Positions 191 to 30,386 of a DNA stretch of 30,585 nucleotides are shown here, piece by piece (the first letter of the stretch is position 1; every line of letters starts with the position of its first letter). The DNA is from a virus (lineage: Duplodnaviria > Heunggongvirae > Uroviricota > Caudoviricetes). The notes below the pieces were generated by a model. It did not search any database and was not told where the DNA came from. It saw nothing but the letters and a program-made list of their open reading frames with translations. The position numbers and the translations under genes were made by a program. The stretch is taken from IMG/VR virus record IMGVR_UViG_2663763534_000001; one strand, 5' to 3'.

Positions 191-2104
191 ATGAGCAAAG
201 TAAAAATCGGTGAATTAATAAACTCACTTGTTAGCGATGTTGAGTCAATAGATAACTCTGACCGTCCTCAAGGGGAAAAAACAAAAAAAATAAAGGCTGT
301 TGCATTAAAATTTAAAAATGCATTATTTAATGATAAGCGAAAGTTTAGGGGGAAAGGATTAGAAAAAAGAATTACAGCCAACACATTCAATGCCTATATG
401 AGCAGGGCCAGAAAACGGTTTGATGATAAACTTCATCATAGCTTTGAAAAAAATATACATCGCCTATCTGAAAAGTATCCTTTATATAATGAGGAGCTAT
501 TGTCATGGCTTTCTCTACCTGCTGCCGATATTCGCCAGAGAATGTCAGCTTTACAGGCAAAATTAAAATTAATTCTCCCTTTATCAGAAGATTTATCTAA
601 TATCAGAATTGGTGATAACAAAAGTCATAATAAGTTATTAAAATTATCAAATAAATATAAAGAGTGGCAATTCGCCATATCTGATTTAACTAGCGATAAC
701 TGGAAAGATAAGCGCGATTATTTATATAAATTACTACAGCAAGGATCTGCCTTACTTGAAGAGTTGAATCAGCTAAAAGTTAACCATGAGATTCTCTATC
801 ATCTTCAACTAAGCCCTGCCGAACGCGCATCTATCCAGCAACGATGGGCGGACGTTCTGCACAATAAGAAACGTAACGTGGTGGTCATTGATTACCCTAA
901 ATATATGCAAGCTATTTACGATATTATAAATAGCCCTGCTACATTAAATAATCTAAACACTCGTTCAGGTATGGCTCCTTTGGCATTTGCACTTGCTGCA
1001 TTGTCAGGAAGACGAATGATTGAGATTATGTATCAAGGTACATTTACTGTTTCTGGTAAGTATACCGTTGATTTTTTAGGCCAAGCAAAAAAAAGAACTT
1101 CTGATGATATAACCAGAAAAATATATACATTATGCGAAGCAAAAACATTTGTTTATTTAATAAATGTACTTCGCTCATGCCCAGCAGCATCTGATTTTGA
1201 TGATGTCGTTAAAGGTTATGGAGATAACGACACACGCTCTGAAAACGGACGGATTAATGCCATATTAGCAAAGGCTTTTAACCCGTGGGTCAAATCATTT
1301 TTCAAAGATGACCGCCGTGTTTATAAAGATAGTCGTGCTATTTATGCCCGTATTGCGTATGAAATGTTTTTCCGCGTAGATCCTCGTTGGAAAAACGTAG
1401 ATGAGGATGTTTTCTTTATGGAAATTTTAGGCCATGACGATGAAAACACTCAATTACACTATAAGCAATTCAAGCTGGCCAACTTCTCAAAGACATGGAG
1501 GCCAAATACTGGAAACGAAAATACCAGGCTGGAAGCATTGCAGCAGCTTGATGACGAAATGCCAGGATTCGCCAGAGGAGATGCCGGGGTTCGTCTGCAT
1601 AACACAGTTAAGCAGCTGGTAGAGCATGACCCCTCTATAAAAATCACGAACAGCACTCTAAGAGCATTCAAATTTAGCCCTACAATGATTAGTCGATACC
1701 TGGAATTTGCTGCTGATGCTCTGGGGCAATTTGTTGGCGAAAATGGACAATGGCAGCTGAAAATAGATTCTCCAGAAATCGTTATGCCTGACGAAGAAGA
1801 GCTGGAAGCAATACCTGAACAGACGGATGAATTATCAGAGGATGACGATCTGGATGACGACGAAATTGAGATAGAGGAAGAGGAAGAGGAAGAGGAAGAG
1901 GAAGAGGAAGAGAGCGTAGAAGAACAGCAACCGCCCGCGCCTTCTTCACCTGTATCTAAGCCGGTATTTAAGCCTGTGAGAAATATTGGTGATGGCTCAT
2001 ACGTTGTTGAGTTTCATTATAATGGCCAGAATTATGCTTGGTCCGGCAGTGCAAACAGCCCTATATCAGCAATGCAGTTAGCATGGCTGACATATTTCGG
2101 ATAA
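191..2104 (+). CDS. telN: Protelomerase (telomere resolvase), TelN/TelK family
   Basis: 637-aa ORF with RBS aggagagg. Sequence is recognisably TelN-like along its length (MSKVKIGELIN..., RMIEIMYQG, ILGHDDENTQLHYKQFKLANF) with an acidic C-terminal linker. It sits next to the telomere half-site. Confidence 0.85.
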   Translation: MSKVKIGELINSLVSDVESIDNSDRPQGEKTKKIKAVALKFKNALFNDKRKFRGKGLEKRITANTFNAYMSRARKRFDDKLHHSFEKNIHRLSEKYPLYNEELLSWLSLPAADIRQRMSALQAKLKLILPLSEDLSNIRIGDNKSHNKLLKLSNKYKEWQFAISDLTSDNWKDKRDYLYKLLQQGSALLEELNQLKVNHEILYHLQLSPAERASIQQRWADVLHNKKRNVVVIDYPKYMQAIYDIINSPATLNNLNTRSGMAPLAFALAALSGRRMIEIMYQGTFTVSGKYTVDFLGQAKKRTSDDITRKIYTLCEAKTFVYLINVLRSCPAASDFDDVVKGYGDNDTRSENGRINAILAKAFNPWVKSFFKDDRRVYKDSRAIYARIAYEMFFRVDPRWKNVDEDVFFMEILGHDDENTQLHYKQFKLANFSKTWRPNTGNENTRLEALQQLDDEMPGFARGDAGVRLHNTVKQLVEHDPSIKITNSTLRAFKFSPTMISRYLEFAADALGQFVGENGQWQLKIDSPEIVMPDEEELEAIPEQTDELSEDDDLDDDEIEIEEEEEEEEEEEEESVEEQQPPAPSSPVSKPVFKPVRNIGDGSYVVEFHYNGQNYAWSGSANSPISAMQLAWLTYFG

Positions 2105-2149: not shown

Positions 2150-2314
2150 CTACCTCGCCTGCCCCTTTTCGTCCTCATCCAACTTTCTGATGGCCGTAGA
2201 ATCAATACCCGCCGCCATACACACATCAGATGCAACAAACCACGGTTCGCCGTTAATCATCACTACACGAACCTGATGCTCTTCCTGAAAGGAAAAGACT
2301 GCTAACGCGCTCAT
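2150..2314 (-). CDS. Short Bro-N/antirepressor N-terminal-domain fragment (54 aa), possibly a truncated ant-like gene
   Basis: Strong RBS aggagg 5 nt before the ATG, and an ATGA overlap with the upstream ORF. Translation MSALAVFSFQEEHQVRVVMINGEPWFVASDVCMAAGIDS... matches the Bro-N hallmark (F.F....VR....GEPWFVA.DV) but stops after ~54 aa. Not in the ORF track (under 60 aa). Confidence 0.45.
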   Translation of the reverse strand: MSALAVFSFQEEHQVRVVMINGEPWFVASDVCMAAGIDSTAIRKLDEDEKGQAR

Positions 2315-2544
2315 TCAGCCTCCTTATCGTGCAGCAATTGCGACGAGAGCGATGCTGAATAACCCTGTGCTTCGTGTGTTAGCTCACACGCAATTTGAAG
2401 GAGTTTCCCTGCTTCTGAGAGATAAATCGACGCCTCACAACTGGAGATTGTCCGATGGGCTGATGATACGAGCGCATAGACCTGAGCCAGACGTTCATCC
2501 AACGATTCCAGCAGGCCAACAGTGTTCATTTTTACCTGATTCAT
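2311..2544 (-). CDS. Hypothetical small protein (77 aa)
   Basis: ORF with RBS gaggtgg. ATGA-coupled both to the upstream 54-aa ORF and to the downstream Bro-N fragment ORF. Confidence 0.4.
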   Translation of the reverse strand: MNQVKMNTVGLLESLDERLAQVYALVSSAHRTISSCEASIYLSEAGKLLQIACELTHEAQGYSASLSSQLLHDKEAE

Positions 2545-2705
2545 GCAGCCACCTCGCGCACCGGAATACGGGCAGACAATACCAGGACAAACCGGCTGGC
2601 GAACTGGCGACGAGCTTCCCGTTCAGATGACGCGATGGTGGAAAGATGATGGATGTGTGACTTTTTGTCTGTGCGAACGATTGCCGCAAATTTGAATTTG
2701 AACAT
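2541..2705 (-). CDS. Hypothetical small basic protein (54 aa), first gene of a three-ORF coupled mini-operon
   Basis: ATG at 2705 preceded by ggagtg. Reads MFKFKFAAIVRTDKK... and its stop overlaps the next ATG (ATGA). Not in the ORF track. Confidence 0.35.
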   Translation of the reverse strand: MFKFKFAAIVRTDKKSHIHHLSTIASSEREARRQFASRFVLVLSARIPVREVAA

Positions 2706-2866
2706 GGTATGCACTCCGTTTAATTGGTCGTGCTACCACCAGAGTTCCTACGCTCTATATGGCGGTAGCCCAGACGGGGGTAGGAATACCGGTAAACGAA
2801 GAAACCGGCCAGCTAAAAGCTGCCCCATCTGAGCCACCATAAATTTGGTGTACGCAGATTTTACAC

Positions 2867-2891
2867 ACAAAAAAACACGCTGGCGCGTGTT
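2867..2891 (-). terminator. Rho-independent terminator (minus strand)
   Basis: Hairpin aacacgc-tggc-gcgtgtt followed on the minus strand by a run of 7 T (plus-strand A7 at 2869..2875). Confidence 0.5.
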
Positions 2892-3000
2892 GTGCGCTTC
2901 ATTTACTCGGGTTCCTACGCCCGGCTACGGGATTTACCGTAGCGGAGTAAACTTTACCGTCAAAACGACGCGCACGTCAATAATTTGCAAAGACATTTTA

Positions 3001-3020
3001 CCCCGTGACCAGTCACGGGG
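3001..3020. repeat. Palindrome CCCCGTGAC-CA-GTCACGGGG, member of a dispersed GTGAC-N2-GTCAC family
   Basis: Perfect 9-2-9 inverted repeat. The same 12-bp core recurs at 7685..7698 and 12939..12950. A T-run starts 7 nt downstream, so it may also act as a terminator. Confidence 0.5.
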
Positions 3021-3081
3021 ACAGGTGTTTTTATAGTTTGCTTGAACGAGTGATCAGAAGTTGATCGTTAATCAAAGGCCA

Positions 3082-3369
3082 TTATTGATTAAGAGATTGG
3101 AAATACCTAACTAACTTACCGGCATCATCACATTTTTCTTTATCTTCGTCCTTAACATAGCCGCGACAAAAGGCTGAATAAAATTTTGCATTTTCAGAAG
3201 CAAAAGCAGCCGTCGAAAGGAGCAGCTCTTTGCATGACTCTTTTGATGCAGCATCGGGATTATTTTTACATGCAAGGTCCGCTGATGAGTTAATAACAGA
3301 AATGCTATCTTCCTGGGCATAAACCGCAGCAGAAAAGGCAAAACATAAAACAAAAATAAAACTCTTCAC
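3082..3369 (-). CDS. Small secreted cysteine-containing protein with signal peptide (95 aa)
   Basis: Likely GTG start after RBS aggaga. N-terminus MKSFIFVLCFAFSAAVYA-QE is a typical Sec signal with an AxA cleavage site. Mature part is rich in Cys, Asp and Lys. Confidence 0.5.
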   Translation of the reverse strand: MKSFIFVLCFAFSAAVYAQEDSISVINSSADLACKNNPDAASKESCKELLLSTAAFASENAKFYSAFCRGYVKDEDKEKCDDAGKLVRYFQSLNQ

Positions 3370-3396
3370 TTTATCTCCTGTAACAGTCATCACAAT

Positions 3397-3792
3397 TCAA
3401 TCAACTTTTTTAGCATCAGCCATACGATTCAACCAGAAATCAACAATCGGTTGCTCATCTACAGAATGTTTACCAGGTATAACTCGCCAGCTATCTTGCG
3501 AAAATCTGCCGTACTTACGCGGGAATAGGCCTTTCTTTATCTCCCGCCATGTACTAGGAAAACCATCCACAAAAGTACCAATTAACAGGAGAGGGACAAA
3601 AATCAGAGCTACAAACCATCGTGCAAGAAAGTGTTCAACAACAACATTTTCACCGTTGTAGTAATACGCATACGCATCCAATATGCGAATTTTCCTTACC
3701 TTAAAAATAGCCTTATGCTGATAACGACTTAACTTGATACGAATGTATCCCTTATCCAAAGGGGATTCGTATTTGTATGATTGAACAGCCAT
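3397..3792 (-). CDS. Hypothetical membrane protein (about 131 aa, one predicted TM helix)
   Basis: ATG directly after the upstream stop. Hydrophobic segment WFVALIFVPLLLIGTFV. Confidence 0.45.
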   Translation of the reverse strand: MAVQSYKYESPLDKGYIRIKLSRYQHKAIFKVRKIRILDAYAYYYNGENVVVEHFLARWFVALIFVPLLLIGTFVDGFPSTWREIKKGLFPRKYGRFSQDSWRVIPGKHSVDEQPIVDFWLNRMADAKKVD

Positions 3793-3794
3793 TT

Positions 3795-4121
3795 TTAACC
3801 CCACTCACCATCAGCAAACAAAGCGTTATACTCTGACAATGGTAGACGGTTGCCCTCGATGTAGAGATTCAGTTCATACTTCGTCTCCGGGTTTTCCTTG
3901 TCGGCTCGTTCCCAACGCTCAGCAGCCTTACGCGCCAATAATTCCACTGCTTTCAGATAATCCTCCGTACGGAACCAGCCAAAGATAAGGCCACGATCTG
4001 TTACAGCCCAGGCGACCTTTTTTTCTTCCTCCTGGATAGCCCTAATGCGTCGTTCGCATTCATCCCGGCAGAACTGCAGCTGACGGTAATCAAGTTTGTC
4101 CAAAAATGCAGTAGTAGACAT
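3795..4121 (-). CDS. Hypothetical protein (108 aa)
   Basis: ORF with strong RBS ggggag. Tightly packed with its neighbours in the operon downstream of repA. Confidence 0.5.
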   Translation of the reverse strand: MSTTAFLDKLDYRQLQFCRDECERRIRAIQEEEKKVAWAVTDRGLIFGWFRTEDYLKAVELLARKAAERWERADKENPETKYELNLYIEGNRLPLSEYNALFADGEWG

Positions 4122-4125
4122 ATTT

Positions 4126-4317
4126 TTACTCCCCGTTCACCGAAAATTCACGATAGAAACGTTTCCACATACGATAAGTCTGCGCAAATTGTTCACCACG
4201 AAACATCGCCTTCCTGGCCTTCATGTTTTCCTTGTGAGACTTTCGGTCTATGAACCAAAACCATTGCTGGAACACACAAAGCAAGAGACACAAAGATAAT
4301 ATCCACTCATTACCCAT
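4126..4317 (-). CDS. Hypothetical small membrane protein (63 aa)
   Basis: ATG 8 nt inside the repA 3 prime end. Hydrophobic N-terminus LSLCLLLCVFQQWFWF followed by a basic tail. Weak RBS. Confidence 0.3.
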   Translation of the reverse strand: MGNEWILSLCLLLCVFQQWFWFIDRKSHKENMKARKAMFRGEQFAQTYRMWKRFYREFSVNGE

Positions 4318-7300
4318 AGAAAGCGCCCTGCTCTTCGTAGCTGCATGAGCTATTCCCCGTAATGTATTCACGTAACCGCCGCAGCTCATTGCTGGAAAGG
4401 TGATCCATGAACTCTGTGAGGTACAGGGATGCAAACGTCATAGCTATGCTGGCTGATGACCATGATGACATAGTGGCCAACTCCTCACTGGAAAGCGCAC
4501 TCATCGCCCAGGACTCAGGTACAGCCACTGGCAACACGGCCAAAGCCTCAGAAATTACTGAATGAGGGGCGTTTTGAACCTGCTCGTTTGTGGATCGCGT
4601 TTTATCATCCATATATATATTGAGATCCAAATCGCGATCCATTTCGATGGCTGTCTTCTCGGCTTTACGCGTTTTTAGGGTTAGGCCATCTTTCTGACGC
4701 TGAACAAGAATATCCAGCATAAATGCCGCTGATTCAGGCTCAACAAAACGCAAGGTTGGACGCTTATCGCCGTCTCTGCCGCGACGTTTACCTGTTTTAA
4801 GGCCAAGAGAGTCGCAAATGTTTTTAAACAACGCTTCCGGCACTTTAGGCTTCCCTTTTGGCGTCATAAAACCACCAATGTGCAGAACGTTATTCAACAG
4901 GTCACGGCGTTCGGCTGTCATGAGGTTATCTCGAGCGAATTTGAGACGCTCCTGAGTCGCCTCGCCGGTCATAGTCTCAGGGTTGATACCGCAGTCGATA
5001 AAGTACTGCCGGAGAGTTGCTGATTTAAGCGCATAGAAACCGCGCGCCCCGACTTCAACAGTAGGAGTAGCTTTTACCTTGTGATCGATTATTCCAGGGA
5101 ATTTAGTTTTAAAGACATCATCAGCCTGCTCGCGAGTCATCGCGGTCACTACAAAATATTGCCACTGTCCCGCCTGACGGTATGCGTAGGTAAAATTGAT
5201 GGCTGCTTCTTCCCGGTCGTAACGACGAGCTGTTACCTCATCTAAAAGCATTGTTTCATAGCGGCGAACTTTGTCTCGAGCACCATCGAAATAGAATTTC
5301 AGCGTGCCTTCTTCAACCGGTAGTTTCAGTTCGTTTTCAATATCCCAGCGGACAAGTTTTGCCTGTTCTTCAAGCGTCAGCGCGCGTTTTTTTAGCAGTT
5401 CTTCACGCTCTGATTCTTGTGGAGTTTCTGTATTGAGGTGCAGATCCAGTGTCTGTTCCCACACAATATCCCGCGCTTCTTTACGCAGATCTTTACCGAT
5501 ATCATTCGCAGCATAATCGGTGGCCAGCGGTGATACCTTATAACCGTCGCTGTGCATGATGCAGATCATGTTGCTGGCGTAGTCGTTACGCGCAGTCGCT
5601 TCAATTGCGGCTGCTTTAATTTTCATCCTGGTAAAGTCGGTATTGGCCACCCCCATTGATATACGGTCGCCATCGAAAACGACATCCGTAAGTTCACCGT
5701 TCATACCTGCGGTAGCAAGCAATGCCTGGGCGAATGCTCGTTCTATTTTTTGCGGGTCAGTTTCACGTTTTGCACGAGCTTTATCAAAGCCGATAATAAA
5801 TTCTTTTGCTGTACGGTCGCGGCGTAGCATTTGCACTGCGTCGCTGGGTACAACTTCACCACAGAACATGCCGAAATGACGGTCAAAATGTTTTTGCTCA
5901 ATCGACACGCCGGATGAAATAGACGGGCTATAAATCAGGCCGTCGTATTTTTTGACCATCTTTTTCGGTTGATTGGTAAATGCTTCAACTTCTGGCTCTG
6001 GTTTGTTTTTCTGGTTTACACACAGAAATTTCTTACCAGGAAAATGCATTCTCAGGGTGGCTGTCACATCTTCTGCAAAGGTGGAGCTGTCGGTGGCCAA
6101 CATGATTTTTTCGCCATCCGATACAGCTTTCACCACCTCGGTCATGATGCGATCTTTTTCTGTATAAAAAACCCGGATTGGCTCACCTGTTTCGCGGTTG
6201 CGAACATCAACAGGTAATTCAATTACGTGGATCTGCAGCCATGCCGGTAAACCTAGTTCTTCACGGCGTTTCATAGCCAGTTCAGCCAGGTCAACCAGTA
6301 GATCGTTCGCATCAGCATCCACCATGATTGGGTGTTGTTCCGTTCTGGCCAGCGCGTCAATTAGCGTATTGAATACAGCAACCGGGTTTTCCATAGCCCG
6401 ACCGGAAAGAACGGCACGTAGCCCTTGTGTGGCCTCGTCAAAGCCAAAATAGTCGTGCTGGCGCATCAAAGGTTGCCAGCAGTTTTTAACAATCGAGTTT
6501 ATGCAGATGGTCAGTTTACTGGCGTATGGAGCCATTTCCTGATAGCCAGGGTCCTGATAGTGCAGGATATCGGCTTTTACACCTTTTCCTTCTGTCATCA
6601 TTTCCCACAGGCCACCAATAAGGGAGACACGGTGAGCAACAGAGATACCACGTTCTGAGCTATGCATTAACGGTCGTAACAATCCAGTAGATTTGCCGGA
6701 ACCCATACCAGCACGGACGATGACTATCCCCTGTAGTGATTGCACGTACTTCAGGACATCATCGGTCATTACCGAAGTTTCAAAACGCTTATAGGTGATA
6801 TGTTGAGGGCGTTTATTGGGATCAGTTATGCGTTCGCTGAAAGAGCGCGGAGCCTGGGCAATACGGCACTTTTTATTCAGGCGACGGGCAATGTGGTCTT
6901 TTACCGTAGCGCGATAGATATTTTCCAGTCCCATTTCACGCAGAACGATGCAGAACATGTTAAATAAATCTGACGGACTGTTAGGAACCGGACAGGTTAG
7001 CATGCCAATATCCACCGCTCTCAGCAGCTCTTTGGCAAAAGTACGACGGTTATCCCGCTTAATTGTCTTCAGGCGGTTGAGCGTCAGAGATAGCAAATCA
7101 GTACCGGTTTTCAGGCGGTTTGCTGTTGCAAATAGTTGACGTGCTGTTTCACGAAGTCCACGTAGTTTGTGCAGGTCGTTGAAGTCACTGCACTCCATTT
7201 GCGGATCGTCTTCAAAAGTTGGATAGACGCAGCGGACATCGTTGAATTTCGATAAGATTTCATAGCCAGTCCGCAGGCCGGTATTCCCTTTTCCTTCTGT

Positions 7301-8305
7301 GGCAGATTTCCGGTCATTATCCAGTGCGCAGGTGATTTTTGCCGCCGGGTACATGTTTACCAGTTGTTCCACAACATGAACCATGTTGTTAGCGGATACA
7401 GCGACAACCACAGCGTCAAAGCGTTTATCTTTTTTCGTGGCAAGCCAGATGGATGCACCAGTAGCAAAACCTTCTGTAACAGCGATGTTTTGCGCCCCTT
7501 TCAGCTCACCGATAACAAAGCAGGCACCGACGAAATCACCGCTGGTTACTGCGCTGGTCTGGTATTTCCCACCTTGTTTGTCGATTCGCTGCCAACCCAC
7601 AATACGACCATCATAACGACCGTCTAGGTGAGCCAGAGGGATAGCCATATATGTGGTTGGCCCCCGGCTCCATTTCGCACTGTCGTGACTGGTCACGCGA
7701 CGCACATCACATGAACTAAAAACGTCACGAATACCTTTTTTAATCGCATATGGCCATGAGCCGTCTTCAGCCTGAGCATGTTCCCACGCGCTGTGGAATG
7801 CCAGCCATCCCAGCAAACGTTCATGGTCCATTTGGTTGTTTTTCAGGTCATTAATTCGTTTTTGTTCTTCACGGCGACGACGTGCTTCGGCCTGACGTTC
7901 TATTCTTTCCCGTTCTTCTTCTGGTTGTGCGACCACGGTCGCATTATTCCGTTGTTGCTCACGGCGATATTCAGAAAACAGGAAGGAGAAACCGCTCCAT
8001 GAGCCAGCATCGCTGCCTTTATGGACGAAGTTAATGAACGGGTAATCAATCCCTTTGCTGTGTTCCAGCCTGGAGTAAATTTCTACGCGTCCTTTCAGGC
8101 TCTTTTCGAGAGCTTCTGGAGATGTTTTATTGTATGAAGAGTAACGCTCAACCCCCCCGCGAGGGTTGAGTTGGATGTTGTCGGAACAGGCAGGCCAGTT
8201 GATACCAGCCATCTGTGCCAGCTCGGTTAGTTCATCCCGTGCTGCTTCAATTAGCGAGAACGGATCGCTGCCAAAGCGATCCGCATAGAAATCGTTTAAT
8301 GTCAT
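4310..8305 (-). CDS. repA: Multifunctional replication protein RepA (primase plus helicase), N15 RepA-like
   Basis: 1331-aa ORF with a Walker A motif (VRAGMGSGKST). Size and position (between the telN side and cB) match N15 repA. Confidence 0.88.
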   Translation of the reverse strand: MTLNDFYADRFGSDPFSLIEAARDELTELAQMAGINWPACSDNIQLNPRGGVERYSSYNKTSPEALEKSLKGRVEIYSRLEHSKGIDYPFINFVHKGSDAGSWSGFSFLFSEYRREQQRNNATVVAQPEEERERIERQAEARRRREEQKRINDLKNNQMDHERLLGWLAFHSAWEHAQAEDGSWPYAIKKGIRDVFSSCDVRRVTSHDSAKWSRGPTTYMAIPLAHLDGRYDGRIVGWQRIDKQGGKYQTSAVTSGDFVGACFVIGELKGAQNIAVTEGFATGASIWLATKKDKRFDAVVVAVSANNMVHVVEQLVNMYPAAKITCALDNDRKSATEGKGNTGLRTGYEILSKFNDVRCVYPTFEDDPQMECSDFNDLHKLRGLRETARQLFATANRLKTGTDLLSLTLNRLKTIKRDNRRTFAKELLRAVDIGMLTCPVPNSPSDLFNMFCIVLREMGLENIYRATVKDHIARRLNKKCRIAQAPRSFSERITDPNKRPQHITYKRFETSVMTDDVLKYVQSLQGIVIVRAGMGSGKSTGLLRPLMHSSERGISVAHRVSLIGGLWEMMTEGKGVKADILHYQDPGYQEMAPYASKLTICINSIVKNCWQPLMRQHDYFGFDEATQGLRAVLSGRAMENPVAVFNTLIDALARTEQHPIMVDADANDLLVDLAELAMKRREELGLPAWLQIHVIELPVDVRNRETGEPIRVFYTEKDRIMTEVVKAVSDGEKIMLATDSSTFAEDVTATLRMHFPGKKFLCVNQKNKPEPEVEAFTNQPKKMVKKYDGLIYSPSISSGVSIEQKHFDRHFGMFCGEVVPSDAVQMLRRDRTAKEFIIGFDKARAKRETDPQKIERAFAQALLATAGMNGELTDVVFDGDRISMGVANTDFTRMKIKAAAIEATARNDYASNMICIMHSDGYKVSPLATDYAANDIGKDLRKEARDIVWEQTLDLHLNTETPQESEREELLKKRALTLEEQAKLVRWDIENELKLPVEEGTLKFYFDGARDKVRRYETMLLDEVTARRYDREEAAINFTYAYRQAGQWQYFVVTAMTREQADDVFKTKFPGIIDHKVKATPTVEVGARGFYALKSATLRQYFIDCGINPETMTGEATQERLKFARDNLMTAERRDLLNNVLHIGGFMTPKGKPKVPEALFKNICDSLGLKTGKRRGRDGDKRPTLRFVEPESAAFMLDILVQRQKDGLTLKTRKAEKTAIEMDRDLDLNIYMDDKTRSTNEQVQNAPHSVISEALAVLPVAVPESWAMSALSSEELATMSSWSSASIAMTFASLYLTEFMDHLSSNELRRLREYITGNSSCSYEEQGAFYG
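4591..4641. other. Candidate replication origin element inside the 3 prime end of repA
   Basis: 9-bp inverted repeat tggatcgcg / cgcgatcca flanking an AT-rich spacer containing (AT)5, with several GATC sites. N15 ori is reported to lie in the 3 prime part of repA. Confidence 0.3.
7685..7698. repeat. Palindrome CGTGAC-TG-GTCACG (GTGAC-N2-GTCAC family) inside repA
   Basis: Perfect 6-2-6 inverted repeat sharing its core with the sites at 3001 and 12939. Confidence 0.45.
7928..7943. other. sopC-like centromere palindrome TGCGACC-AC-GGTCGCA (copy 1, inside repA)
   Basis: Perfect 7-2-7 palindrome with the same architecture as the F sopC SopB-binding repeat (TGGGACC-AC-GGTCCCA). Five copies in the window. 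Confidence 0.6.
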
Positions 8306-8353
8306 TTTTTAGCCATTCCATGCGAATTATGTTTTTTCGGGTTGAAAAAATCC

Positions 8354-8421
8354 GCAGGAGCAGCCACAATAAACGCATCTTGAATTGACGGAATCCGTCG
8401 CGTTACTGTGGCTGCTTCCTG
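8354..8421 (-). terminator. Long imperfect hairpin followed (minus strand) by a T6 run in the repA leader; candidate attenuator
   Basis: Arms gcaggagcagccacaat / ttactgtggctgcttcctg with a ~32-nt loop. Plus-strand aaaaaa at 8345..8350 gives a U-run after the stem on the repA transcript. Lies ~40 nt upstream of the repA start. Confidence 0.35.
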
Positions 8422-8428
8422 AAAAGGA

Positions 8429-8456
8429 CCCGAGTTTGCCGACTCGGGTTTTTTTT
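8429..8456. terminator. Rho-independent terminator between cB and repA
   Basis: Stem cccgagt/actcggg with 6-nt loop, followed by T8 on the plus strand and tccttttc on the minus strand. Confidence 0.6.
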
Positions 8457-8550
8457 CGTCTTTTTTCTGCTGCTGTAACCTGAGTCAACCCACAGAACAT
8501 ATGCCCTGCATTAAACCAGATTTACAGCAAACAATAAACCCCGTATTAAG

Positions 8551-9147
8551 TCATCTACCCTCAACCATGAATGATTTGATCGTTCCGACTATTTGGTGAA
8601 CAAATTCAAGATCGCTTTTCCTGAAGATGGCGCGTTGTGAGTTTGTTCCATCCAGATAGTAATTTTCATCATCAAAACGGGCCAGGCGCTGGATAGTGAT
8701 ATTTCCTGCAGTATCACGAACCAGAACATCCTCGCCGGGGACCAGTTCCAGCGCAGAATCGACCAGGAGAAAATCGCCTGGCTGATAGTTTCCCTGCGTA
8801 AGATTGCTGATAGTTAACGCATACACAGTATTGCGCTGGCTGATGAATGGCAGGAATCGCTCAGTATTTGGAACCTGTCCCGGCTTCCACTCTTCATCCG
8901 GCCCACTTTCAGTTGTGCCAATAACAGGAATGCGATCAGGGTCATATTCTGTCCCATATAGCACCCAATGCACTGGCTTGCGTAAGCACTTAGCCAGGGC
9001 AATACCTATCTCCAGTGACGGCATTACGTCGCCACGTTCTAAGTTTTGGACGCCTGCTATAGAGATATCGACAGCCTCAGCAACTTCTCGCAACGTCAGC
9101 TTCATCTCTAAACGGCGTGCTTTCAGTCGTTCGCCTCGTGTTTTCAT
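8551..9147 (-). CDS. cB: Prophage repressor, CI/CB-like (HTH XRE N-domain plus LexA/CI-like C-domain)
   Basis: 198-aa ORF with N-terminal HTH (LTLREVAEAVDISIAGVQNLERG) and a CI-like C-terminal fold. Divergent from the cro-like gene across an operator-bearing intergenic region. Confidence 0.8.
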   Translation of the reverse strand: MKTRGERLKARRLEMKLTLREVAEAVDISIAGVQNLERGDVMPSLEIGIALAKCLRKPVHWVLYGTEYDPDRIPVIGTTESGPDEEWKPGQVPNTERFLPFISQRNTVYALTISNLTQGNYQPGDFLLVDSALELVPGEDVLVRDTAGNITIQRLARFDDENYYLDGTNSQRAIFRKSDLEFVHQIVGTIKSFMVEGR

Positions 9148-9169
9148 ACTGTAATCATAAATGATCTTC

Positions 9170-9185
9170 TTATAGCTGGCTATAA
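9170..9185. promoter_or_regulatory. Operator palindrome TTATAGC-TG-GCTATAA (candidate CB/Cro operator, OR site 1)
   Basis: Perfect 7-2-7 inverted repeat in the 91-bp cB-cro intergenic region. Confidence 0.6.
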
Positions 9186-9193
9186 AATTTATT

Positions 9194-9211
9194 TATTATA
9201 GCTGGCTTTAA
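9194..9211. promoter_or_regulatory. Second operator (imperfect copy: ttatagctggcttta) overlapping a TATAAT-like box
   Basis: Repeat of the ttatagctggc half-site 26 bp downstream of site 1. tataat hexamer at 9226..9231. Confidence 0.45.
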
Positions 9212-9238
9212 TTGTTGTTTATTGTTTATAATAACAAC

Positions 9239-9460
9239 ATGAAACCAGAAGAACTTATTCGCCATTTTGGCAGTGTAGAAAAAGCAGCGGCAGGGGTAGG
9301 TGTAACACCCGGAGCTGTTTACCAATGGTTAACCGCTGGAGAGATTCCTTCATTGCGGCAAAGCGATATTGAAGTTCGTACTGCTTATAAGCTGAAGAGT
9401 GACTTTACAACTCGGCGGGTAAAGCAGTCGATTAAGGAGAGTCGTAAGCGTGGAGCTTGA
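9239..9460 (+). CDS. cro: Cro-like HTH regulator
   Basis: 73-aa ORF divergent from cB with an HTH segment (GSVEKAAAGVGVTPGAVYQWLTAGE). ATG at 9239 preferred over the TTG at 9212 given in the ORF track; RBS is weak. Confidence 0.65.
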   Translation: MKPEELIRHFGSVEKAAAGVGVTPGAVYQWLTAGEIPSLRQSDIEVRTAYKLKSDFTTRRVKQSIKESRKRGA

Positions 9461-10160
9461 GTATATACGCAGCTGCGTCTCTACGGCATTGGCTGATGTT
9501 CATTATCGCCAGCGTGGCATTCTGGAGGTCCAGCTTGAGCAGATGCGTCTCGGTAGATCAGGACGGTTTAACAATAAACCAGTCCGGTCAATCAGTGTGG
9601 GGGATGATAACTCATACGAAGTGTCCGTTCCTGCTGAGCCGGTTAGATTCCATCAGGGGAAAACATTTAAACAATCATCAATGTTGCTCACTGATATTGA
9701 TTTTCAGAGCGCCAGCTGGCGCAGGGCTATTGGTCAGTTGAATAACGAGGAATCAGCCTGGCTTTATTATTGCTACGGATGCAAGCCTGATTACAACAAT
9801 GATGTGATTGTTTGTCAGTGGTTATGGCTTGATTTTCTGGTTGCTCATTCGGGGGGCGGCTTTAAAAAAATGAAGGCCTCCACGAAAAAAGCCATGCGGA
9901 AATTGATTTATTACGCGGCACAACAGGTTAAATCAGAACTTACGTGTGCTGAGGCAGTTGATGAGAGAGAACAGGACAGGCATCTGAGTTTTCTACTGAA
10001 TATATCTATTGATAGCTGGAGACAAGATTATAAAGAACGCTGGCTTTTAATTAAGTCGCGATGTCTGAGCTTAAATCGAACCGCATTATTAAATGCGGCG
10101 GAGAAGCGCAGTGAAATCATCAAACGCCATCGGGCAGGAAGTGCCATTCTGCCTTTGTAA
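9450..10160 (+). CDS. Putative late-gene regulator (Q-like antiterminator candidate by position)
   Basis: 236-aa ORF overlapping the cro stop, in the position of N15 Q (cB-cro-Q). No motif confidently recognised; call is by synteny. Confidence 0.35.
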   Translation: MELEYIRSCVSTALADVHYRQRGILEVQLEQMRLGRSGRFNNKPVRSISVGDDNSYEVSVPAEPVRFHQGKTFKQSSMLLTDIDFQSASWRRAIGQLNNEESAWLYYCYGCKPDYNNDVIVCQWLWLDFLVAHSGGGFKKMKASTKKAMRKLIYYAAQQVKSELTCAEAVDEREQDRHLSFLLNISIDSWRQDYKERWLLIKSRCLSLNRTALLNAAEKRSEIIKRHRAGSAILPL

Positions 10161-10413
10161 ACAAGTTATGTTCAGGAAACCGTCGAAGCCAGAATTAAGG
10201 TATTCGGGGGTAAGAAATGAATATGTTATTTGGTGTCCAACTTGTGGTTACAGGACACGACCAGATAGTAATAAGCAGTCTGTAATTGCCGATTGGTATT
10301 TATCAAATCAGCCAGGTAATAAGCATATAGAAAATCTTTGGATTAAGCGTTACTTGGAAATCAGAGGGGGTGCGACCGTGGTCGCACAAGAAAATGAAAA
10401 TAACGCCATTTAA
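10093..10413 (+). CDS. Zinc-ribbon protein, possibly Lar-family (restriction alleviation); start uncertain
   Basis: Contains C.C...WCPTCG Cys pairs typical of small phage zinc ribbons. 5 prime end overlaps the Q-like gene. A sopC-like site lies in its 3 prime end. Confidence 0.3.
   Translation: MRRRSAVKSSNAIGQEVPFCLCKQVMFRKPSKPELRYSGVRNEYVIWCPTCGYRTRPDSNKQSVIADWYLSNQPGNKHIENLWIKRYLEIRGGATVVAQENENNAI
10371..10386. other. sopC-like centromere palindrome TGCGACC-GT-GGTCGCA (copy 2)
   Basis: Perfect 7-2-7 palindrome identical to the other copies apart from centre orientation. Confidence 0.6.
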
Positions 10414-10423
10414 GCAGGGGCCG

Positions 10424-10597
10424 ATGACGCATGATGAAGCAGAGCGTCTTTCAGATACTTATCGGCGGCGTGGTAAGAAAGTTCTGGTTGTTCGTTCTGA
10501 TTTTTTAGGTGATGGATATTGCGTTTATGTTCATTTACCTGAATCAGAAAGAACGCCAAAACCATCCAGAACATATCAACAGAAAATTTGGGTATAG
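10424..10597 (+). CDS. Hypothetical small protein (57 aa)
   Basis: ORF following the zinc-ribbon gene. Start chosen at the ATG after the upstream stop; weak RBS. Confidence 0.25.
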   Translation: MTHDEAERLSDTYRRRGKKVLVVRSDFLGDGYCVYVHLPESERTPKPSRTYQQKIWV

Positions 10598-10620
10598 ATA
10601 AACGTTGAGGAGAATTATTC

Positions 10621-11220
10621 GTGACTAATCAGATTATTTACGACAGGAAACGGTCTGATGTAATGATTGACCTTGAAACAATGGGTACTAACACATGTGC
10701 TCCAATTGTTTCTATCGGGGCAGTGTTTTTTTCTCCAGAAAGTGAGGAATTAGGTCCTACTTTTTATGTGCCAGTGAATCTCAGAAGCTCGATGTTGAAT
10801 GGTGGTATCGCCGATGGTGATACCATTTTATGGTGGTTGAAACAGAGCAAGGAAGCCAGAGCCGCTATTTGTACTAATGATGCCCTTGATATTAAGGATG
10901 CACTTTTTGAATTATCACACTTTATTACTTGCCATGCATGTAATTTAAAAAAGTTGAAAGTATGGGGAAATGGAGCAACGTTCGATAATGTAATTTTACG
11001 CGGTGCTTATGAGCGCGTTGGCTTAGCCTGTCCGTGGGAATATTTTAATGATCAGGATGTTCGAACAATCGTTAATCTTGGTCAGTTTATTGGTTTTAAT
11101 CCTAAAAAAGATATGCCATTTGATGGCGAACGACACAATGCCCTGGCTGATGCTATTCATCAGGCTAAATATGTATCCGCAATTTTCTCCCGTCTTGTAA
11201 AAGGGCAAGGAGAATCGTAA
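10621..11220 (+). CDS. DnaQ-like (DEDD) 3 prime-5 prime exonuclease
   Basis: GTG start after RBS gaggag. N-terminal motif MIDLETMGT resembles the Exo I motif (D.E) of DnaQ/RNase T-like exonucleases, with a conserved HNALADA-like motif near the C-terminus. Confidence 0.6.
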   Translation: MTNQIIYDRKRSDVMIDLETMGTNTCAPIVSIGAVFFSPESEELGPTFYVPVNLRSSMLNGGIADGDTILWWLKQSKEARAAICTNDALDIKDALFELSHFITCHACNLKKLKVWGNGATFDNVILRGAYERVGLACPWEYFNDQDVRTIVNLGQFIGFNPKKDMPFDGERHNALADAIHQAKYVSAIFSRLVKGQGES

Positions 11221-11639
11221 TGGCAAAGGCTTTTACACCAGAACAGAGGGAAGAACTGAATAAACAAATTGTGGAACTCGTGCGCCTGAATGGACGAGGA
11301 ACGGTTAGGCAACTTGCGGATGAAACTGGTATTAGCCGGTGTGCTGTTAGTCGTTTATCAAGAGAGCTTGCTGCCAGTGGTGATTTGTATATCTCTGGCT
11401 CCGGGATATTTCTGTCTGCACAAGCACGCAAGGACTGGCAAAACGCCCGTAAAAAACTATCAAGAGTAAAGCCGAAGAAATCGGTAGTTGTTGATCCTGA
11501 CCTTATCTGGTCATTACCTGATGGAGAAATACGTCGTTATGACAGGCGCTTGAACATGATTTGTCACGATTGTCGGAAGAGCGAAGTTATGCAGCGTGTG
11601 TTGGCGTTTTATCAGGGAAATTTTCAGGAGGTGGCGTAG
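11220..11639 (+). CDS. Hypothetical HTH/winged-helix protein (139 aa)
   Basis: ATG overlaps the exonuclease stop. HTH-like segment VRQLADETGISRCAVSRLSREL. Confidence 0.5.
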   Translation: MAKAFTPEQREELNKQIVELVRLNGRGTVRQLADETGISRCAVSRLSRELAASGDLYISGSGIFLSAQARKDWQNARKKLSRVKPKKSVVVDPDLIWSLPDGEIRRYDRRLNMICHDCRKSEVMQRVLAFYQGNFQEVA

Positions 11640-11925
11640 TGAATATCGACACCACGATAACGATCGATACGGCCCTAAATACCGGTCTGGCACTTCTCGG
11701 TTGGTTTTACATCATGTTCAGTGCGGGGAAGTGAGCGGCCTCTGTTTTTCTAAAGCAGTGGGGAAAGCGCCGCAAACAGGAAAAACGCCAGAAAGCGTTG
11801 GAGGCGTTCTATGACGCATTTGAACTTAGCCGCATTGAGCCAGGCACAACAGCCAAGATAGCGACAAAAGGCGACCTGATGATAGTGATGTTCCGACAGG
11901 AGAGAGCAGAGAAAGGTGAATCAGC

Positions 11926-12600
11926 ATGAAATTTTCTAAATTTTCTGAGTTGGTGAATCGTATTTTGTTGAATCGTATTTTGTCCAACAACCACAGCGAT
12001 CGTCGCGATATGGATGTAACGATCGTTGTTCATTCGCCTGGCAGCATTGGTTCAACACCTTCAGTTGAGGTTCAGTCAATTCACGCTGGTTTTGATTGGG
12101 ATTCCGGGAAAGTGCTGATTTTCCCAGCACAGCCACTGACCACGCTAACACCAGAACAGATTACTGATATCACGGATAGTGTGCGCAAAGGTCAGTCTTG
12201 GCACGCATATCAGGAATACAAGAAGCATAAAGAGCAGTTGGAAAAATTGTCGATTGAGTTGGAATCAGCCAAAAATCACATAGCAGAACTGGAAGCCAAA
12301 CCTGTAAGCCAAACTTACAAGTTAACTTTTGAGCAATGGCTGGAACAGCAGCATGACAAAATTGATGTTGATTGTGGATGTGTAAGTACAGAAATGCTTA
12401 TGCACTGGATAAGGGTCGCGTATGAGGCTGGCAACTCTCCGGTAACTCCGGATGGTCATATTCAGTTTTCTGTTTCACTTCCTGCAGCATGTGGTGGAGA
12501 TAAATATTTTATTGATGGTGTATTTCAACCTTTGAGATATGAGCGTGACTGTGAAAAAGCGGTTGTGGCCGCTGGCGGTGTAGTTAATTGGGTTAAGTAA
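11926..12600 (+). CDS. Hypothetical protein (224 aa)
   Basis: ORF with RBS aaaggtg. Contains a coiled-coil-like segment (KHKEQLEKLSIELESAKNHIAELEA). Confidence 0.5.
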   Translation: MKFSKFSELVNRILLNRILSNNHSDRRDMDVTIVVHSPGSIGSTPSVEVQSIHAGFDWDSGKVLIFPAQPLTTLTPEQITDITDSVRKGQSWHAYQEYKKHKEQLEKLSIELESAKNHIAELEAKPVSQTYKLTFEQWLEQQHDKIDVDCGCVSTEMLMHWIRVAYEAGNSPVTPDGHIQFSVSLPAACGGDKYFIDGVFQPLRYERDCEKAVVAAGGVVNWVK

Positions 12601-12615
12601 TTTTCAGGAGGATTT

Positions 12616-12942
12616 ATGGCGCTGACAGCTGCAGAACGGCAAAGGAGACGCAGGGAACGGTTGAAGAAGGAAGGCACATCAAGACGGGACTGGATTCTGG
12701 AACCTGACGAGCTACGTATGTTGGGGGAAATTTGTGTATTGCGTAGACCGGGACGAGTTCCATATTCAGAGAATGAAGTCATCGGTCTGCTGATCAGGAA
12801 AAACTATAAGGAGCTGCAGAAGCAGCTATCTACTACTTGCCCGCGATGTGGTCAGAAAATGCCTGTTTCAGAATGTATTTTTGATGGTGAAGGCTCATGT
12901 CACCTTACAACTACGAGGCTGAAACTTGTGCTCAAAGTGTGA
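12616..12942 (+). CDS. Hypothetical basic protein with C-terminal CPRCG zinc-ribbon-like motif (108 aa)
   Basis: ORF with RBS caggagg 6 nt upstream. Arg-rich N-terminus (AERQRRRRERLKKEG). Confidence 0.45.
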   Translation: MALTAAERQRRRRERLKKEGTSRRDWILEPDELRMLGEICVLRRPGRVPYSENEVIGLLIRKNYKELQKQLSTTCPRCGQKMPVSECIFDGEGSCHLTTTRLKLVLKV

Positions 12943-12950
12943 CTGGTCAC
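12939..12950. repeat. Palindrome GTGAC-TG-GTCAC (third copy of the GTGAC-N2-GTCAC family)
   Basis: 12-bp perfect palindrome overlapping the stop codon of the 108-aa gene. Confidence 0.4.
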
Positions 12951-13118
12951 GGAATGATAAATAAACAAAAAGGCATAGTTTTTGAAATGATGAGAAAACG
13001 AAGCGAAAAGAGTTTTTCTTATGGTGATGATGGGCTTCTGTAGGTGGTTGAGTGAGGCGTAGGAAGAGAACATAAGTATCGGACTACAAAGCTATTAACC
13101 CTGTTAATCCATTGAAAG

Positions 13119-13133
13119 TTGGCTATAAAATTT
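13119..13133 (+). promoter_or_regulatory. Promoter/operator-like element sharing 14 nt (TGGCTATAAAATTT) with the cB-cro operator region
   Basis: Exact 14-mer match to 9177..9190, including the operator half-site GCTATAA and a TATAAAAT box. Lies ~50 bp upstream of the 13184 ORF. Confidence 0.35.
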
Positions 13134-13183
13134 GAGTTTTACCCTGTAATTTTATACAGTATCAAATAACCTTTTTTAATTAA

Positions 13184-13402
13184 ATGGTATTAGATTCAAT
13201 GACTGAAGCATCTGTATCAACTCTTGAAGAACTCGGATCAAACCTAAAAGACATCGACGCCGTTTTGGATCTGGTTAGCGTTGCTCTGGCTTCTCCCGAA
13301 GCTAGCTTGCATCTTGGCGAGATTTCACGGCTTGTTAGTATGTCGCGGGAGATTGCTCAGAATTGCCAACAAGCGATTGCTGTGGAGTGTTTACATCATT
13401 GA
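13184..13402 (+). CDS. Hypothetical small acidic protein (72 aa)
   Basis: ORF in an AT-rich region downstream of the promoter-like element. Confidence 0.35.
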   Translation: MVLDSMTEASVSTLEELGSNLKDIDAVLDLVSVALASPEASLHLGEISRLVSMSREIAQNCQQAIAVECLHH

Positions 13403-13445: not shown

Positions 13446-13733
13446 TCAATAGACGGCATTAATATTAATTGTTGCGCCACATGCTTGGGCATATTTTGAT
13501 AAAGTTTTCATGCTTGCCCCTAAAGGATTGCTTTCCAGGCGGCTGATGGCGGACGGGCGCAATCCCATTCGTTCTGCCAGAGCTGACTTCGTTAAACCTG
13601 CTCTTTCCCTCATTTCGTATAACATTTCGACCATCTCCAGTTCTTTATCGGCCTCTTCATATCCTTTGATAGCTTCTGGAGTGTTGAGTAGTTTTTCCTT
13701 TACTTCGTTAAACGGGATGCCTTTTGCTTTCAT
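13446..13733 (-). CDS. HTH XRE-family antitoxin (HigA-like)
   Basis: 95-aa ORF with HTH (LTKSALAERMGLRPSAISRLE). Start overlaps the toxin stop (ATGA) and it lies downstream of the toxin, i.e. HigBA-type order. Confidence 0.7.
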   Translation of the reverse strand: MKAKGIPFNEVKEKLLNTPEAIKGYEEADKELEMVEMLYEMRERAGLTKSALAERMGLRPSAISRLESNPLGASMKTLSKYAQACGATININAVY

Positions 13734-14044
13734 CAGTTCATCTCCTTCAGGCGAGTTCTGGCGATTTCTATAGCCTTTACTGGTGTTTTCTGTGTCTTTT
13801 TTACAAATGCATGCAATAGATAAATTTCGTTACCAGTCGCGTAGGCGTATAGCGTTCTTGCGATGTTTTTATCCCCTACTCTTAGTTCAAAGAGTCCTCC
13901 GCCTATTACACGGCTATGGGGCATCTTAAGTTTGTTTCCCTCTTTCTCCAGTCGTTCAATTAGCCTGGTCATGCGACCTCGCAGATCGTCTGGTAGTTCA
14001 AGCAGTTCATCCAGTGCTGCAGGGTGGGTTATCACGTTAAACAT
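13733..14044 (-). CDS. RelE/HigB-superfamily toxin of the phage Gp49-like family
   Basis: ATG at 14044 with RBS ggagg. 103-aa protein (MFNVITHPAALDEL...YLLHAFVKKTQKTP) typical of Gp49-like/HigB toxins. Coupled to the downstream HTH antitoxin. Confidence 0.7.
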   Translation of the reverse strand: MFNVITHPAALDELLELPDDLRGRMTRLIERLEKEGNKLKMPHSRVIGGGLFELRVGDKNIARTLYAYATGNEIYLLHAFVKKTQKTPVKAIEIARTRLKEMN

Positions 14045-14102
14045 ATTATAGCCTCCTAACGCGCAAAATACACCAAAACGAGAAAACAAAGCAAATATAA
14101 AA

Positions 14103-14673: not shown

Positions 14674-14695
14674 CTGTGCGACCACGGTCGCACAG
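14674..14695. other. sopC-like centromere palindrome (copy 3), extended 22-bp form CTGTGCGACC-AC-GGTCGCACAG
   Basis: Perfect 10-2-10 palindrome; core TGCGACCACGGTCGCA at 14677..14692. Confidence 0.6.
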
Positions 14696-17743: not shown

Positions 17744-17954
17744 GCGCTGCATCGTCGCCGTATTCCCGCATTAACTATGACCGTAGCCCGACGGGGAACT
17801 CCTCTGCGCGAGTGTGCGGAAATAATCAAAAACGATGCACACCGGGTTTTTACCGCGCTAATGATTCGCGGGTTTGTCCCTCATGCTCGCTAGTCCTGTG
17901 CGAGGGTGGAAGAAACAGGGCATGTATTCAGGAGCGTGCGACCGTGGTCGCACG
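17744..17954 (+). repeat. Direct repeat copy A (~211 bp, ~95 percent identical to copy B) ending in a sopC-like site
   Basis: Aligns base for base with 19528..19738 with about 10 substitutions. Contains a sopC-like palindrome at its 3 prime end. Confidence 0.8.
17937..17952. other. sopC-like centromere palindrome (copy 4)
   Basis: TGCGACC-GT-GGTCGCA within repeat copy A, 25 bp upstream of the cassette gene start. Confidence 0.6.
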
Positions 17955-19527: not shown

Positions 19528-19738
19528 GCGCTGCATCGTCGCCGTATTTCCGCATTAACTATGACCGTAGCCTGACGGGGAACTCCTCTGCGCGAGTGTG
19601 TGGAAATAATCAAAAACGATGCATACCGGGTTTTTACAGCGCTAATGATTCGCGGGTTTGTCCCCCATGCTCGCCAGCTCTGTGCGGGGGTGGAAGAAAC
19701 AGGGCATGTATTCAGGAGCGTGCGACCGTGGTCGCACG
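19528..19738 (+). repeat. Direct repeat copy B (~211 bp) ending in a sopC-like site
   Basis: Partner of 17744..17954. Lies ~80 bp upstream of cos. Confidence 0.8.
19721..19736. other. sopC-like centromere palindrome (copy 5)
   Basis: TGCGACC-GT-GGTCGCA within repeat copy B. Confidence 0.6.
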
Positions 19739-30259: not shown

Positions 30260-30386
30260 ATGAAGTTANNNNNNNNNNNNNNNNNNNNNNNNNNNNNNNN
30301 NNNNNNNNNNNNNNNNNNNNNNNNNNNNNNNNNNNNNNNNNNNNNNNNNNNNNNNNNNNNNNNNNNNNNNNNNNNNNNNNNNNNNN
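30260..30386. other. Assembly gap (127 N)
   Basis: Run of n characters. Removes the T 3 prime end and the H 5 prime end. Confidence 0.99.

Follow-up and report, generated by a model that had tools for sequence, protein, structure and literature searches.

The 30,585-nucleotide stretch of viral DNA analysed here (IMG/VR record IMGVR_UViG_2663763534_000001; the whole of it is called the window) is, as read from its sequence, most of an N15-like linear phage-plasmid. It carries three copies of a 12-bp palindrome, GTGAC-NN-GTCAC, that are probably the cognate double-stranded DNA sites of the element's own gp46, a small protein predicted to combine a ribbon-helix-helix (RHH) module with a zinc ribbon and to serve as a lytic transcriptional regulator at unit boundaries. 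That gp46 binds the sites, in what oligomeric form it would do so, and by what mechanism and in which direction it would regulate are the inferred parts of this proposal. The set of three sites and its likely binder are absent from the annotations of N15 and phiKO2, and together they most likely represent an unannotated regulator-operator pair, its protein partner defining a putative small new family within RHH-type sequence-specific DNA binding.

A pattern search with GTGACNNGTCAC returned exactly three matches in the window, all of them one 12-mer, GTGACTGGTCAC, which at site 1 is present as its reverse complement:

3005..3016, GTGACCAGTCAC, equal to GTGACTGGTCAC on the minus strand: site 1, intergenic, between the last gene of the repA operon (3082..3393, minus strand) and the promoter-like sequence Pa
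7685..7696, GTGACTGGTCAC: site 2, a 6-2-6 palindrome inside the minus-strand gene repA, at codons 204-207 (VTSH)
12939..12950, GTGACTGGTCAC: site 3, overlapping the TGA stop codon (12940-12942) of the gp46-family open reading frame (ORF)

In this window site 1 sits within a 9-2-9 palindrome, CCCCGTGAC CA GTCACGGGG, at 3001-3020. Site 2 is some 610 nt away from where repA starts, with a sopC-like site at a distance of 244 bp, and site 3 is directly upstream of the ribosome-binding region of the next gene (gene 47). An earlier note, made from the letters of the sequence, had reported three copies and described the 9-2-9 palindrome, the 6-2-6 palindrome inside repA and the stop-codon overlap, all of which we confirm; its coordinates were right for sites 1 and 3, and site 2, given as 7686..7697, was off by one.

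The same note regarded three exact copies as unexpected by chance. For a pre-specified pattern this is so (0.02 matches expected, from shuffles of the window), but 12 of 120 first-order Markov simulations yielded some palindrome family of the form 5-N(0-6)-5 with at least three copies, and the window itself holds an evident chance family, AGCAG-N3-CTGCT, also in three copies. Because the pattern was picked post hoc, after the sequence had been read, copy number is weak evidence (p ~0.1), and the case for the sites rests on their conservation, not on their count. That some 10% of random sequences of this size give a three-copy palindrome family under such a search is also what speaks for a reading in which the 12-mer recurs by chance, or arises as a by-product of coding constraints or restriction-modification pressure; the comparisons below bear on each part of it. 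A single copy with a 1-bp centre, GTGAC-C-GTCAC, occurs in a tail gene at 29561-29571; it shows no sign of conservation and is probably a chance occurrence.

The nearest relatives of the window are a 42.4-kb Shigella sonnei plasmid (100% identical) and Escherichia phage PhiR46_1 (96%), while N15 and phiKO2 are ~75% identical to it across the shared parts. In N15, phiKO2, PhiR46_1 and the identical 42.4-kb replicon there are exactly three sites, at orthologous places; those of N15 lie downstream of gene 33 and upstream of the cA region, at repA codons ~205-208, and over the gene-46 stop. Among 46 IMG/VR loci fetched with RepA, which fall into three clades with RepA amino acid identities of ~100, 86 and 75%, all 46 carry the sites wherever their DNA reaches, and copies at other positions are found only as inverted-repeat assembly duplicates. 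Conservation at orthologous positions in related phage-plasmids, on which the earlier note had let its proposal depend, thus holds throughout this set. In the record of Escherichia phage YDC107_1 (CP025712.1) the telN-ant-repA-cB segment is present twice, inverted, with frameshifted gene fragments, and this record looks like an assembly through a replicated telomere junction rather than a true genome.

Across the N15-like loci the arms of the palindrome are invariant and only the central dinucleotide changes. Site 1 is conserved in 29/29 distinct contexts from relatives, its centre being GG/CC in some Klebsiella-type elements. Within repA, compared over 26 distinct sequences, none of the four third-codon positions inside site 2 varies, against 50 of 60 outside it, and the longest invariant run in the compared stretch (17 nt) is site 2 plus a few flanking bases. 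In the Yersinia telomere phage PY54, RepA is without the VTSH residues and site 2 is missing too; since VTSH is not conserved there, the constraint at site 2 acts on DNA, and coding constraint is disfavored as the origin of the site. Retention at orthologous positions at ~75% nucleotide identity, with synonymous positions invariant, likewise argues against chance. The GTGAC-NN-GTCAC family is limited to the early/plasmid half of the element. A conserved repeat pair containing Dam sites (TGATCAGAA-N-TGATC; AACTGATCAGAACCTGATCAGTT in relatives) is also present at 3040-3075, adjoining site 1 upstream, after the last gene of the repA operon.

PY54 has no GTGAC site, despite having RepA, TelN, CI, Cro, Q, a methylase and a sopC-like family, and a search at the orthologous repA position of PY54 for a second, co-evolved palindrome family found none. 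Its possession of a DNA methyltransferase without the sites counts against restriction-modification pressure. It also has no homologue of the ORF at 12616..12942 by tblastn or profile search, and the product of that ORF, gp46, is the sole protein among 32 coding sequences compared (telN to terL) that is common to all ten site-bearing groups, and it is missing from PY54. By tblastn, homologues ~35% identical to it turned up in unrelated phages, and the motif is present in each of those examined:

TL-2011b: one copy over the TGA stop of the homologue, one after ant
phiV10: two exact copies, and a one-mismatch copy spanning the record ends
ZF40: three copies, one of them 2 nt past the stop
Vibrio phage K303: three copies
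Klebsiella ST512 phage: two copies, one over the stop

A further 37 viral loci contain 58 sites in 610 kb, against 0.58 expected, and in 24 of the 37 a site is found at or just past the stop of the homologue, mostly starting three bases before the end of the stop codon. Eighteen prophage loci (Yersinia, Serratia, Rahnella, Advenella, Paraglaciecola), 206 kb in all, contain 16 sites where 0.2 would be expected, and here too a site often covers the stop. The site-over-stop layout (G + TGA + C...) recurs in N15, in phiKO2 and in most of the homologues from epsilon15-like phages, Klebsiella, Yersinia, Rahnella and Paraglaciecola. No family member with altered arms was found, and even the Paraglaciecola and Yersinia homologues use GTGAC/GTCAC. 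An enrichment of ~100-fold in unrelated phages having gp46, with the conservation described above, effectively refutes the chance reading, and to it and its companion explanations together we allow a vanishingly small probability. In some prophages of the Yersinia and Rahnella types the stop-codon palindrome is followed, 21 nt (two loci) or 5 nt (one locus) downstream, by an additional half-site (GTGACGCG or GTGTCAC), which hints at cooperative or extended binding in those lineages.

The same comparisons decided among candidate binders. The earlier note had proposed a dedicated dimeric protein, possibly one of the helix-turn-helix (HTH) or zinc-ribbon proteins encoded at 11220..12942; the zinc-ribbon ORF at 12616..12942 gains support from co-occurrence, the stop-codon site and the covariation described below, evidence drawn from sequence comparison, while the HTH candidates drop out and the predicted module is RHH, not HTH. 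DUF977 and the other HTH candidates at 11220..12600 were rejected as N15 and phiKO2 keep the sites without those genes. RepA, SopB, TelN, CB, Cro, Q and the HigA-like antitoxin are each absent from site-bearing phages or present in the site-less PY54. Nor are the sites CB/Cro operators, which in N15-like phages are 16-bp sequences of the form TA-N10-TA located between cB and cro and upstream of repA (PMC4997575): sequence and locations differ, and cB and cro are absent from other site-bearing phages.

The remaining candidate is the following:

12616..12942, plus strand: candidate binder, N15 gp46 family (PHROG 536), 108 aa

This protein has a basic N-terminal helix, AERQRRRRERLKK, invariant residues through its central region, and four invariant C-terminal cysteines in a zinc-ribbon-like arrangement, C75-x2-C78-x8-C87-x7-C95. 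An AlphaFold2 model (pLDDT, the predicted local distance difference test score, 69) has an extended segment followed by helices at residues 30-42 and 52-70, with a poorly defined tail, and a strand is predicted at ~23-29. With moderate confidence we read these features as an RHH module with a zinc-ribbon-like Cys4 tail; the RHH fold assignment taken by itself is a low-confidence one, derived from modelling. Searches with 24 members of the family gave no Pfam match at E-values up to 10 except weak zinc-ribbon noise, and no RHH model; NCBIfam and the sequences of the PDB likewise gave no match. The protein matches only PHROG 536, which carries the putative label "transcriptional regulator". An exhaustive profile search placed the family at 217 clusters at 50% identity, nearly all of them 105-135 aa in length.

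When all family members from the fetched loci are aligned, the identities of residues 23 and 25, both in the predicted strand, vary together with the central dinucleotide that the sites of each genome have:

residues 23/25 K/E: centre AT, 60/68 sites, many independent lineages
residues 23/25 R/D (rarely R/E): centre CA/TG, two lineages, N15-like and one podophage-type contig
residues 23/25 E/R: centre GC (AC at two Vibrio sites), two lineages, the Yersinia group and Vibrio K303

A beta-ribbon that reads the palindrome at its middle would be expected to give rise to such covariation, which we regard as supportive, not decisive. Since phages of E. coli differ in their centres (N15-like phages versus phiV10), it is the phage protein, not the host, that the centre tracks.

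This last point bears on a reading in which a host factor, most obviously MatP, binds the sites, the plasmid-prophage thereby hooking into the organisation or positioning of the Ter macrodomain, and gp46 is unrelated or a competitor. The 13-bp consensus of matS is GTGAC-RNY-GTCAC (PMC3116907), and its 5-bp arms are identical to those found here; an epsilon15-type site amounts to exactly two matS half-sites abutted. The centre of matS is nevertheless 3 bp (RNY), against 2 bp here, and no 13-bp matS is present in the window, N15, phiKO2 or the full replicon. The sites track a phage gene, the Yersinia phage PY54 having neither; one of them is fixed at the gp46 stop codon across unrelated phages; and phages that share a host can have different centres, which change together with residues of the phage protein. 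Binding by MatP or another host factor therefore appears very unlikely.

The likeness to MatP itself extends further, to a small protein with an RHH (predicted in the case of gp46) preceded by a basic helix, to few dispersed sites of which some are intragenic and which are not obviously promoter-linked, and to the same broad host taxa. It could mean that the gp46 family is a phage-borne counterpart of MatP, an RHH protein reading matS-type half-sites one base pair closer together and acting in an architectural or condensin-directed manner (bridging sites, or excluding MukBEF from the phage genome), or else interfering, while the phage grows lytically, with MatP/matS in the Ter region of the host. 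The architecture of MatP comprises a four-helix bundle at the N-terminus and a coiled coil at the C-terminus, where gp46 has its Cys4 zinc-ribbon-like tail, and gp46 is encoded by the phage and has its sites on the phage. Alignment of the gp46 family with E. coli MatP by hhalign put the RHH segments in register, yet at a probability of 0.08% and an E-value of 0.62, which is not significant, and gp46 has no match to the MatP Pfam families (PF06303 / PF17414). A homology search started from MatP gave near-identical sequences only. Membership of the matS/MatP system is not supported; we record the resemblance as a lead and consider a phage-borne MatP counterpart quite unlikely. Were that reading true, a family of phage regulators would either be related by evolution to the Ter organiser of enterobacteria and vibrios or be a molecular mimic of it.

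The surroundings of site 1 bear on a possible transcriptional function, with the following features downstream of it on the minus strand:

2995..3000, minus strand: -10-like hexamer TAAAAT, 4 nt downstream of site 1
2951..2980, minus strand: promoter-like TTGACG-18-TAAAGT, the presumed Pa of the anti-immunity (antirepressor) operon
2758..2956, minus strand: leader of the antirepressor operon, of P1/P4 type, with the a1b1 target at 2956-2904, an isrK-like element plus terminator at 2943-2870 and the C4/CA antisense RNA at 2844-2758

The centre of site 1 is ~67 bp upstream of where Pa transcription is predicted to start, and a conserved block of ~130 bp that precedes the antirepressor operon includes the site; the Pa-like site is directly upstream of the Rfam a1b1/isrK/C4 matches (C4 73.6 bits, isrK 62.5 bits, both above the gathering score). 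A terminator scan placed the leader terminator at 2891-2874. The hexamer nearest site 1 is TAAAAT or TAAAGT in 29/29 distinct relatives, the sequence beyond it being variable; a consensus promoter scan made no call at TAAAAT (2995..3000), which is without a -35 element. If the hexamer is a promoter element, the palindrome of site 1 would span about -28 to -17. A promoter model for every site was rejected: a TAnnnT hexamer 2-4 nt downstream is found only at some (site 1, TL-2011b and, in part, ZF40), and site 3 and the Vibrio sites are too near start codons, so that the model survives only as a sub-hypothesis. The Lpa-dependent late promoters of P1, with a palindrome near -22 plus a -10 element, offer an analogy to which we give no weight as evidence.

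In other phages the sites are strongly associated with terminators and with the ends of genes. The early genes of epsilon15-like phages end with the gp46 homologue; ~22 nt beyond its stop-codon site lies a strong intrinsic terminator, and the terminase genes come next. Other sites in these phages are 0-7 nt upstream of terminators at convergent junctions, including some beside ant genes. Counting distinct sites outside the N15-like group, a terminator starts within 30 nt of 28 of 80 (35%), as compared with 29 of 600 random positions and 42 of 574 ORF ends. The epsilon15-like phages phiV10 and TL-2011b also carry a second, larger palindrome family, TTACC-N5-GGTAA, in 8-10 copies (in TL-2011b at 5172, 5234, 5946, 8227, 8289, 11590, 14819, 33333, 34385 and 34478); its copies cluster around the repressor/cro region and just upstream of terS, and they are probably the operators of the prophage repressor.

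Proximity to terminators, in the direction of transcription, is one of three points that could favor a reading of the palindromes as RNA or single-strand hairpins, whether they serve as terminators, in processing, or as nut-like RNA sites to which gp46 would bind through its arginine-rich N-terminus. The others are the G+C-rich 9-bp stem of site 1 in this window and the N-terminal sequence of gp46 itself, which we take to resemble arginine-rich RNA-binding motifs. The 9-bp stem extension is broken in N15, and conservation therefore does not concern the hairpin; a stem of 5 bp closed by a loop of 2 nt is not able to form. We rejected site 1 as a terminator or hairpin on the same ground and because it has no adjacent U-tract, the nearest T-run being 7-8 nt from the stem, and scans call no terminator there or at site 3. 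Site 2 reads as a complementary loop in the repA mRNA. Rfam has no family matching any of the three sites, the only matches being C4, isrK and a1b1 next to site 1. Arms that stay invariant across very distant phages with no compensatory change, around a centre that varies, are the signature of a dimer on duplex DNA, and the modelled fold is a DNA-binding one of RHH type. Action as hairpins is accordingly a highly improbable explanation.

On the explanation we favor, gp46 as a sequence-specific regulator, a symmetric dimer or a pair of dimers would read the invariant GTGAC/GTCAC arms, and the RHH beta-ribbon would read the central two base pairs. Its gene belongs to the CB-repressed early-right operon (cro-Q-...-46), and the protein would thus be made once repression is lifted, its three targets all being in the plasmid/early half of the genome: the 3' end of its own gene, beside the start of gene 47; the regulatory block that immediately precedes the antirepressor (CA RNA-icd-ant) operon; and a position 0.6 kb into repA, where it may form a roadblock or a looping anchor. 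Its function would be that of a regulator of the lytic programme at unit boundaries, exerted through promoter, terminator or roadblock control, with the antirepressor-operon site as the likeliest point of positive control. Its sign and mechanism (activation, antitermination or roadblock) may differ between phage groups.

Several observations weigh against this explanation. The 35% figure for terminators is inflated, since many of the contexts are related by descent, and no terminator is next to any of the three window sites. A good -10-like hexamer at a spacing that would suit a promoter is found at site 1 alone; site 3 is too near the next start codon for a conventional promoter, and site 2, like several of the sites in other phages, lies within a gene. 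Few independent lineages underlie the covariation. A literature search for the 12-mers found no relevant paper, the motif going unmentioned. Finally, the N15-like phages and ZF40 already have a Q antiterminator, and gp46 is therefore not simply a late regulator.

The main alternative is that gp46 does bind the sites and does so in an architectural, loop-forming role, bridging two to four dispersed sites through its zinc-ribbon tail or acting as a replication or transcription barrier that flanks an origin in repA. The sites are few and dispersed in each genome, and several are intragenic (site 2; ZF40 5125 and 7622; Klebsiella 32023). In the window the loops so formed would measure about 4.7 and 5.3 kb. 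The 3' part of repA, which is where N15 has its origin, is flanked by sites 1 and 2; the extra C-terminal domain could mediate higher-order association, and matS/MatP provides an analogy. Site spacing is not conserved, distances from the repA start ranging across relatives from 4.5 to 6.9 kb for site 1 and from 3.7 to 6.0 kb for site 3, and the strong link to terminators and gene ends in other phages points to transcription. We judge this architectural role unlikely, although more deserving of attention than the other rivals.

Regulation by gp46 has partial parallels in several known systems. RHH repressors such as P22 Arc/Mnt, CopG, omega, ParG and toxin-antitoxin antitoxins differ in that gp46 has no RHH Pfam match and adds a basic N-terminal helix and a predicted C-terminal zinc-binding region; sites of the gp46 family are also single 12-bp palindromes at each locus, not arrays, and are found at gene 3' ends, in genes and beside terminators, not over the promoter of the regulator itself. 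The gp46 homologue of epsilon15-like phages occupies the position of a lambda-type Q, as the last early gene followed by a DNA site, a terminator and the terminase genes, but the predicted gp46 fold is unrelated, and N15-like phages and ZF40 carry a bona fide Q as well. In the window, moreover, Q is separate (9450..10160), what comes after gene 46 is gene 47 with a toxin-antitoxin pair, and none of the sites precedes a terminator.

The window contains another family of dispersed palindromes with a 2-bp centre, the sopC-like GCGACC-NN-GGTCGC (extended form TGCGACC..GGTCGCA), in five copies at 7929-7942, 10372-10385, 14678-14691, 17938-17951 and 19722-19735; N15 and phiKO2 have four copies each, those of phiKO2 being annotated as putative partition sites, and PY54 has eight copies of an F-like variant, TGGGACC-NN-GGTCCCA, and no GTGAC family. 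Both families are dispersed on the same replicon, with one copy of the sopC-like family likewise inside repA, but the sopC-like sites have other arms, are served by a ParB-family protein and reach the late region. The GTGAC sites were rejected as SopB/sopC centromere sites on these grounds (F-like arms being GGGACC-NN-GGTCCC), and the earlier note was correct in treating the two families as distinct. A further resemblance is to the SlmA site, the 12-bp palindrome GTGAGTACTCAC (PMC3116907), which shares the outer four base pairs GTGA...TCAC with the GTGAC sites; the inner four positions differ, SlmA is a TetR-family host protein, and nothing ties it to these sites.

The genes of the window are arranged as follows:

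191..2104, plus strand: telN
2714..2150, minus strand: icd- and ant-like genes, downstream of the C4/CA RNA in a P4/P1-like anti-immunity operon
minus strand: the repA operon, four small genes and repA, its last gene at 3082..3393
4310..8305, minus strand: repA, a 1331-aa primase-helicase replication protein annotated in relatives, containing site 2
8551..9147, minus strand: cB
early-right operon: cro, Q (9450..10160), an exonuclease, DUF977, DUF4752 and an Ea22-like gene
12616..12942, plus strand: the N15 gene-46 homologue, then a gene-47-like ORF and a HigBA-like pair
beyond the HigBA-like pair: gp50- and gp51-like genes, methylase, lysis, terminase and head/tail genes

At the gene-47 position an ORF of ~29 codons (12954-13043) resembles a truncated copy of a gene that is intact in PhiR46_1 (12950..13192 there), and a second gene-47-like ORF at 13184-13402 has a weak match to a PHROG labelled "anti-repressor". 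The Gp49/HigB-like toxin (13733..14089) and the HTH-XRE antitoxin (13446..13733), both on the minus strand, correspond to genes 49 and 48 of N15. Within the tail-gene region, 30269-30386 consists of N, the bases there being masked or unresolved.

If our explanation is correct, the gp46 proteins would constitute a compact new family of phage DNA-binding proteins that is without a Pfam model, has a rigid, universal recognition sequence, and presents a readable code for the central base pairs. N15 has for decades been the model linear phage-plasmid. The proteins would add a previously unknown regulator to lysis-lysogeny circuitry, with sites beside the antirepressor operon and in the replication gene in N15-like elements, and with a site at the early/late boundary in epsilon15-like phages. 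The occurrence of GTGAC-NN-GTCAC at the stop codon of a 105-135-aa Cys4 protein would provide a signature for annotation, and the identity of its arms with those of matS raises the question of interplay, or of a common origin, with the Ter-organising system of the host.

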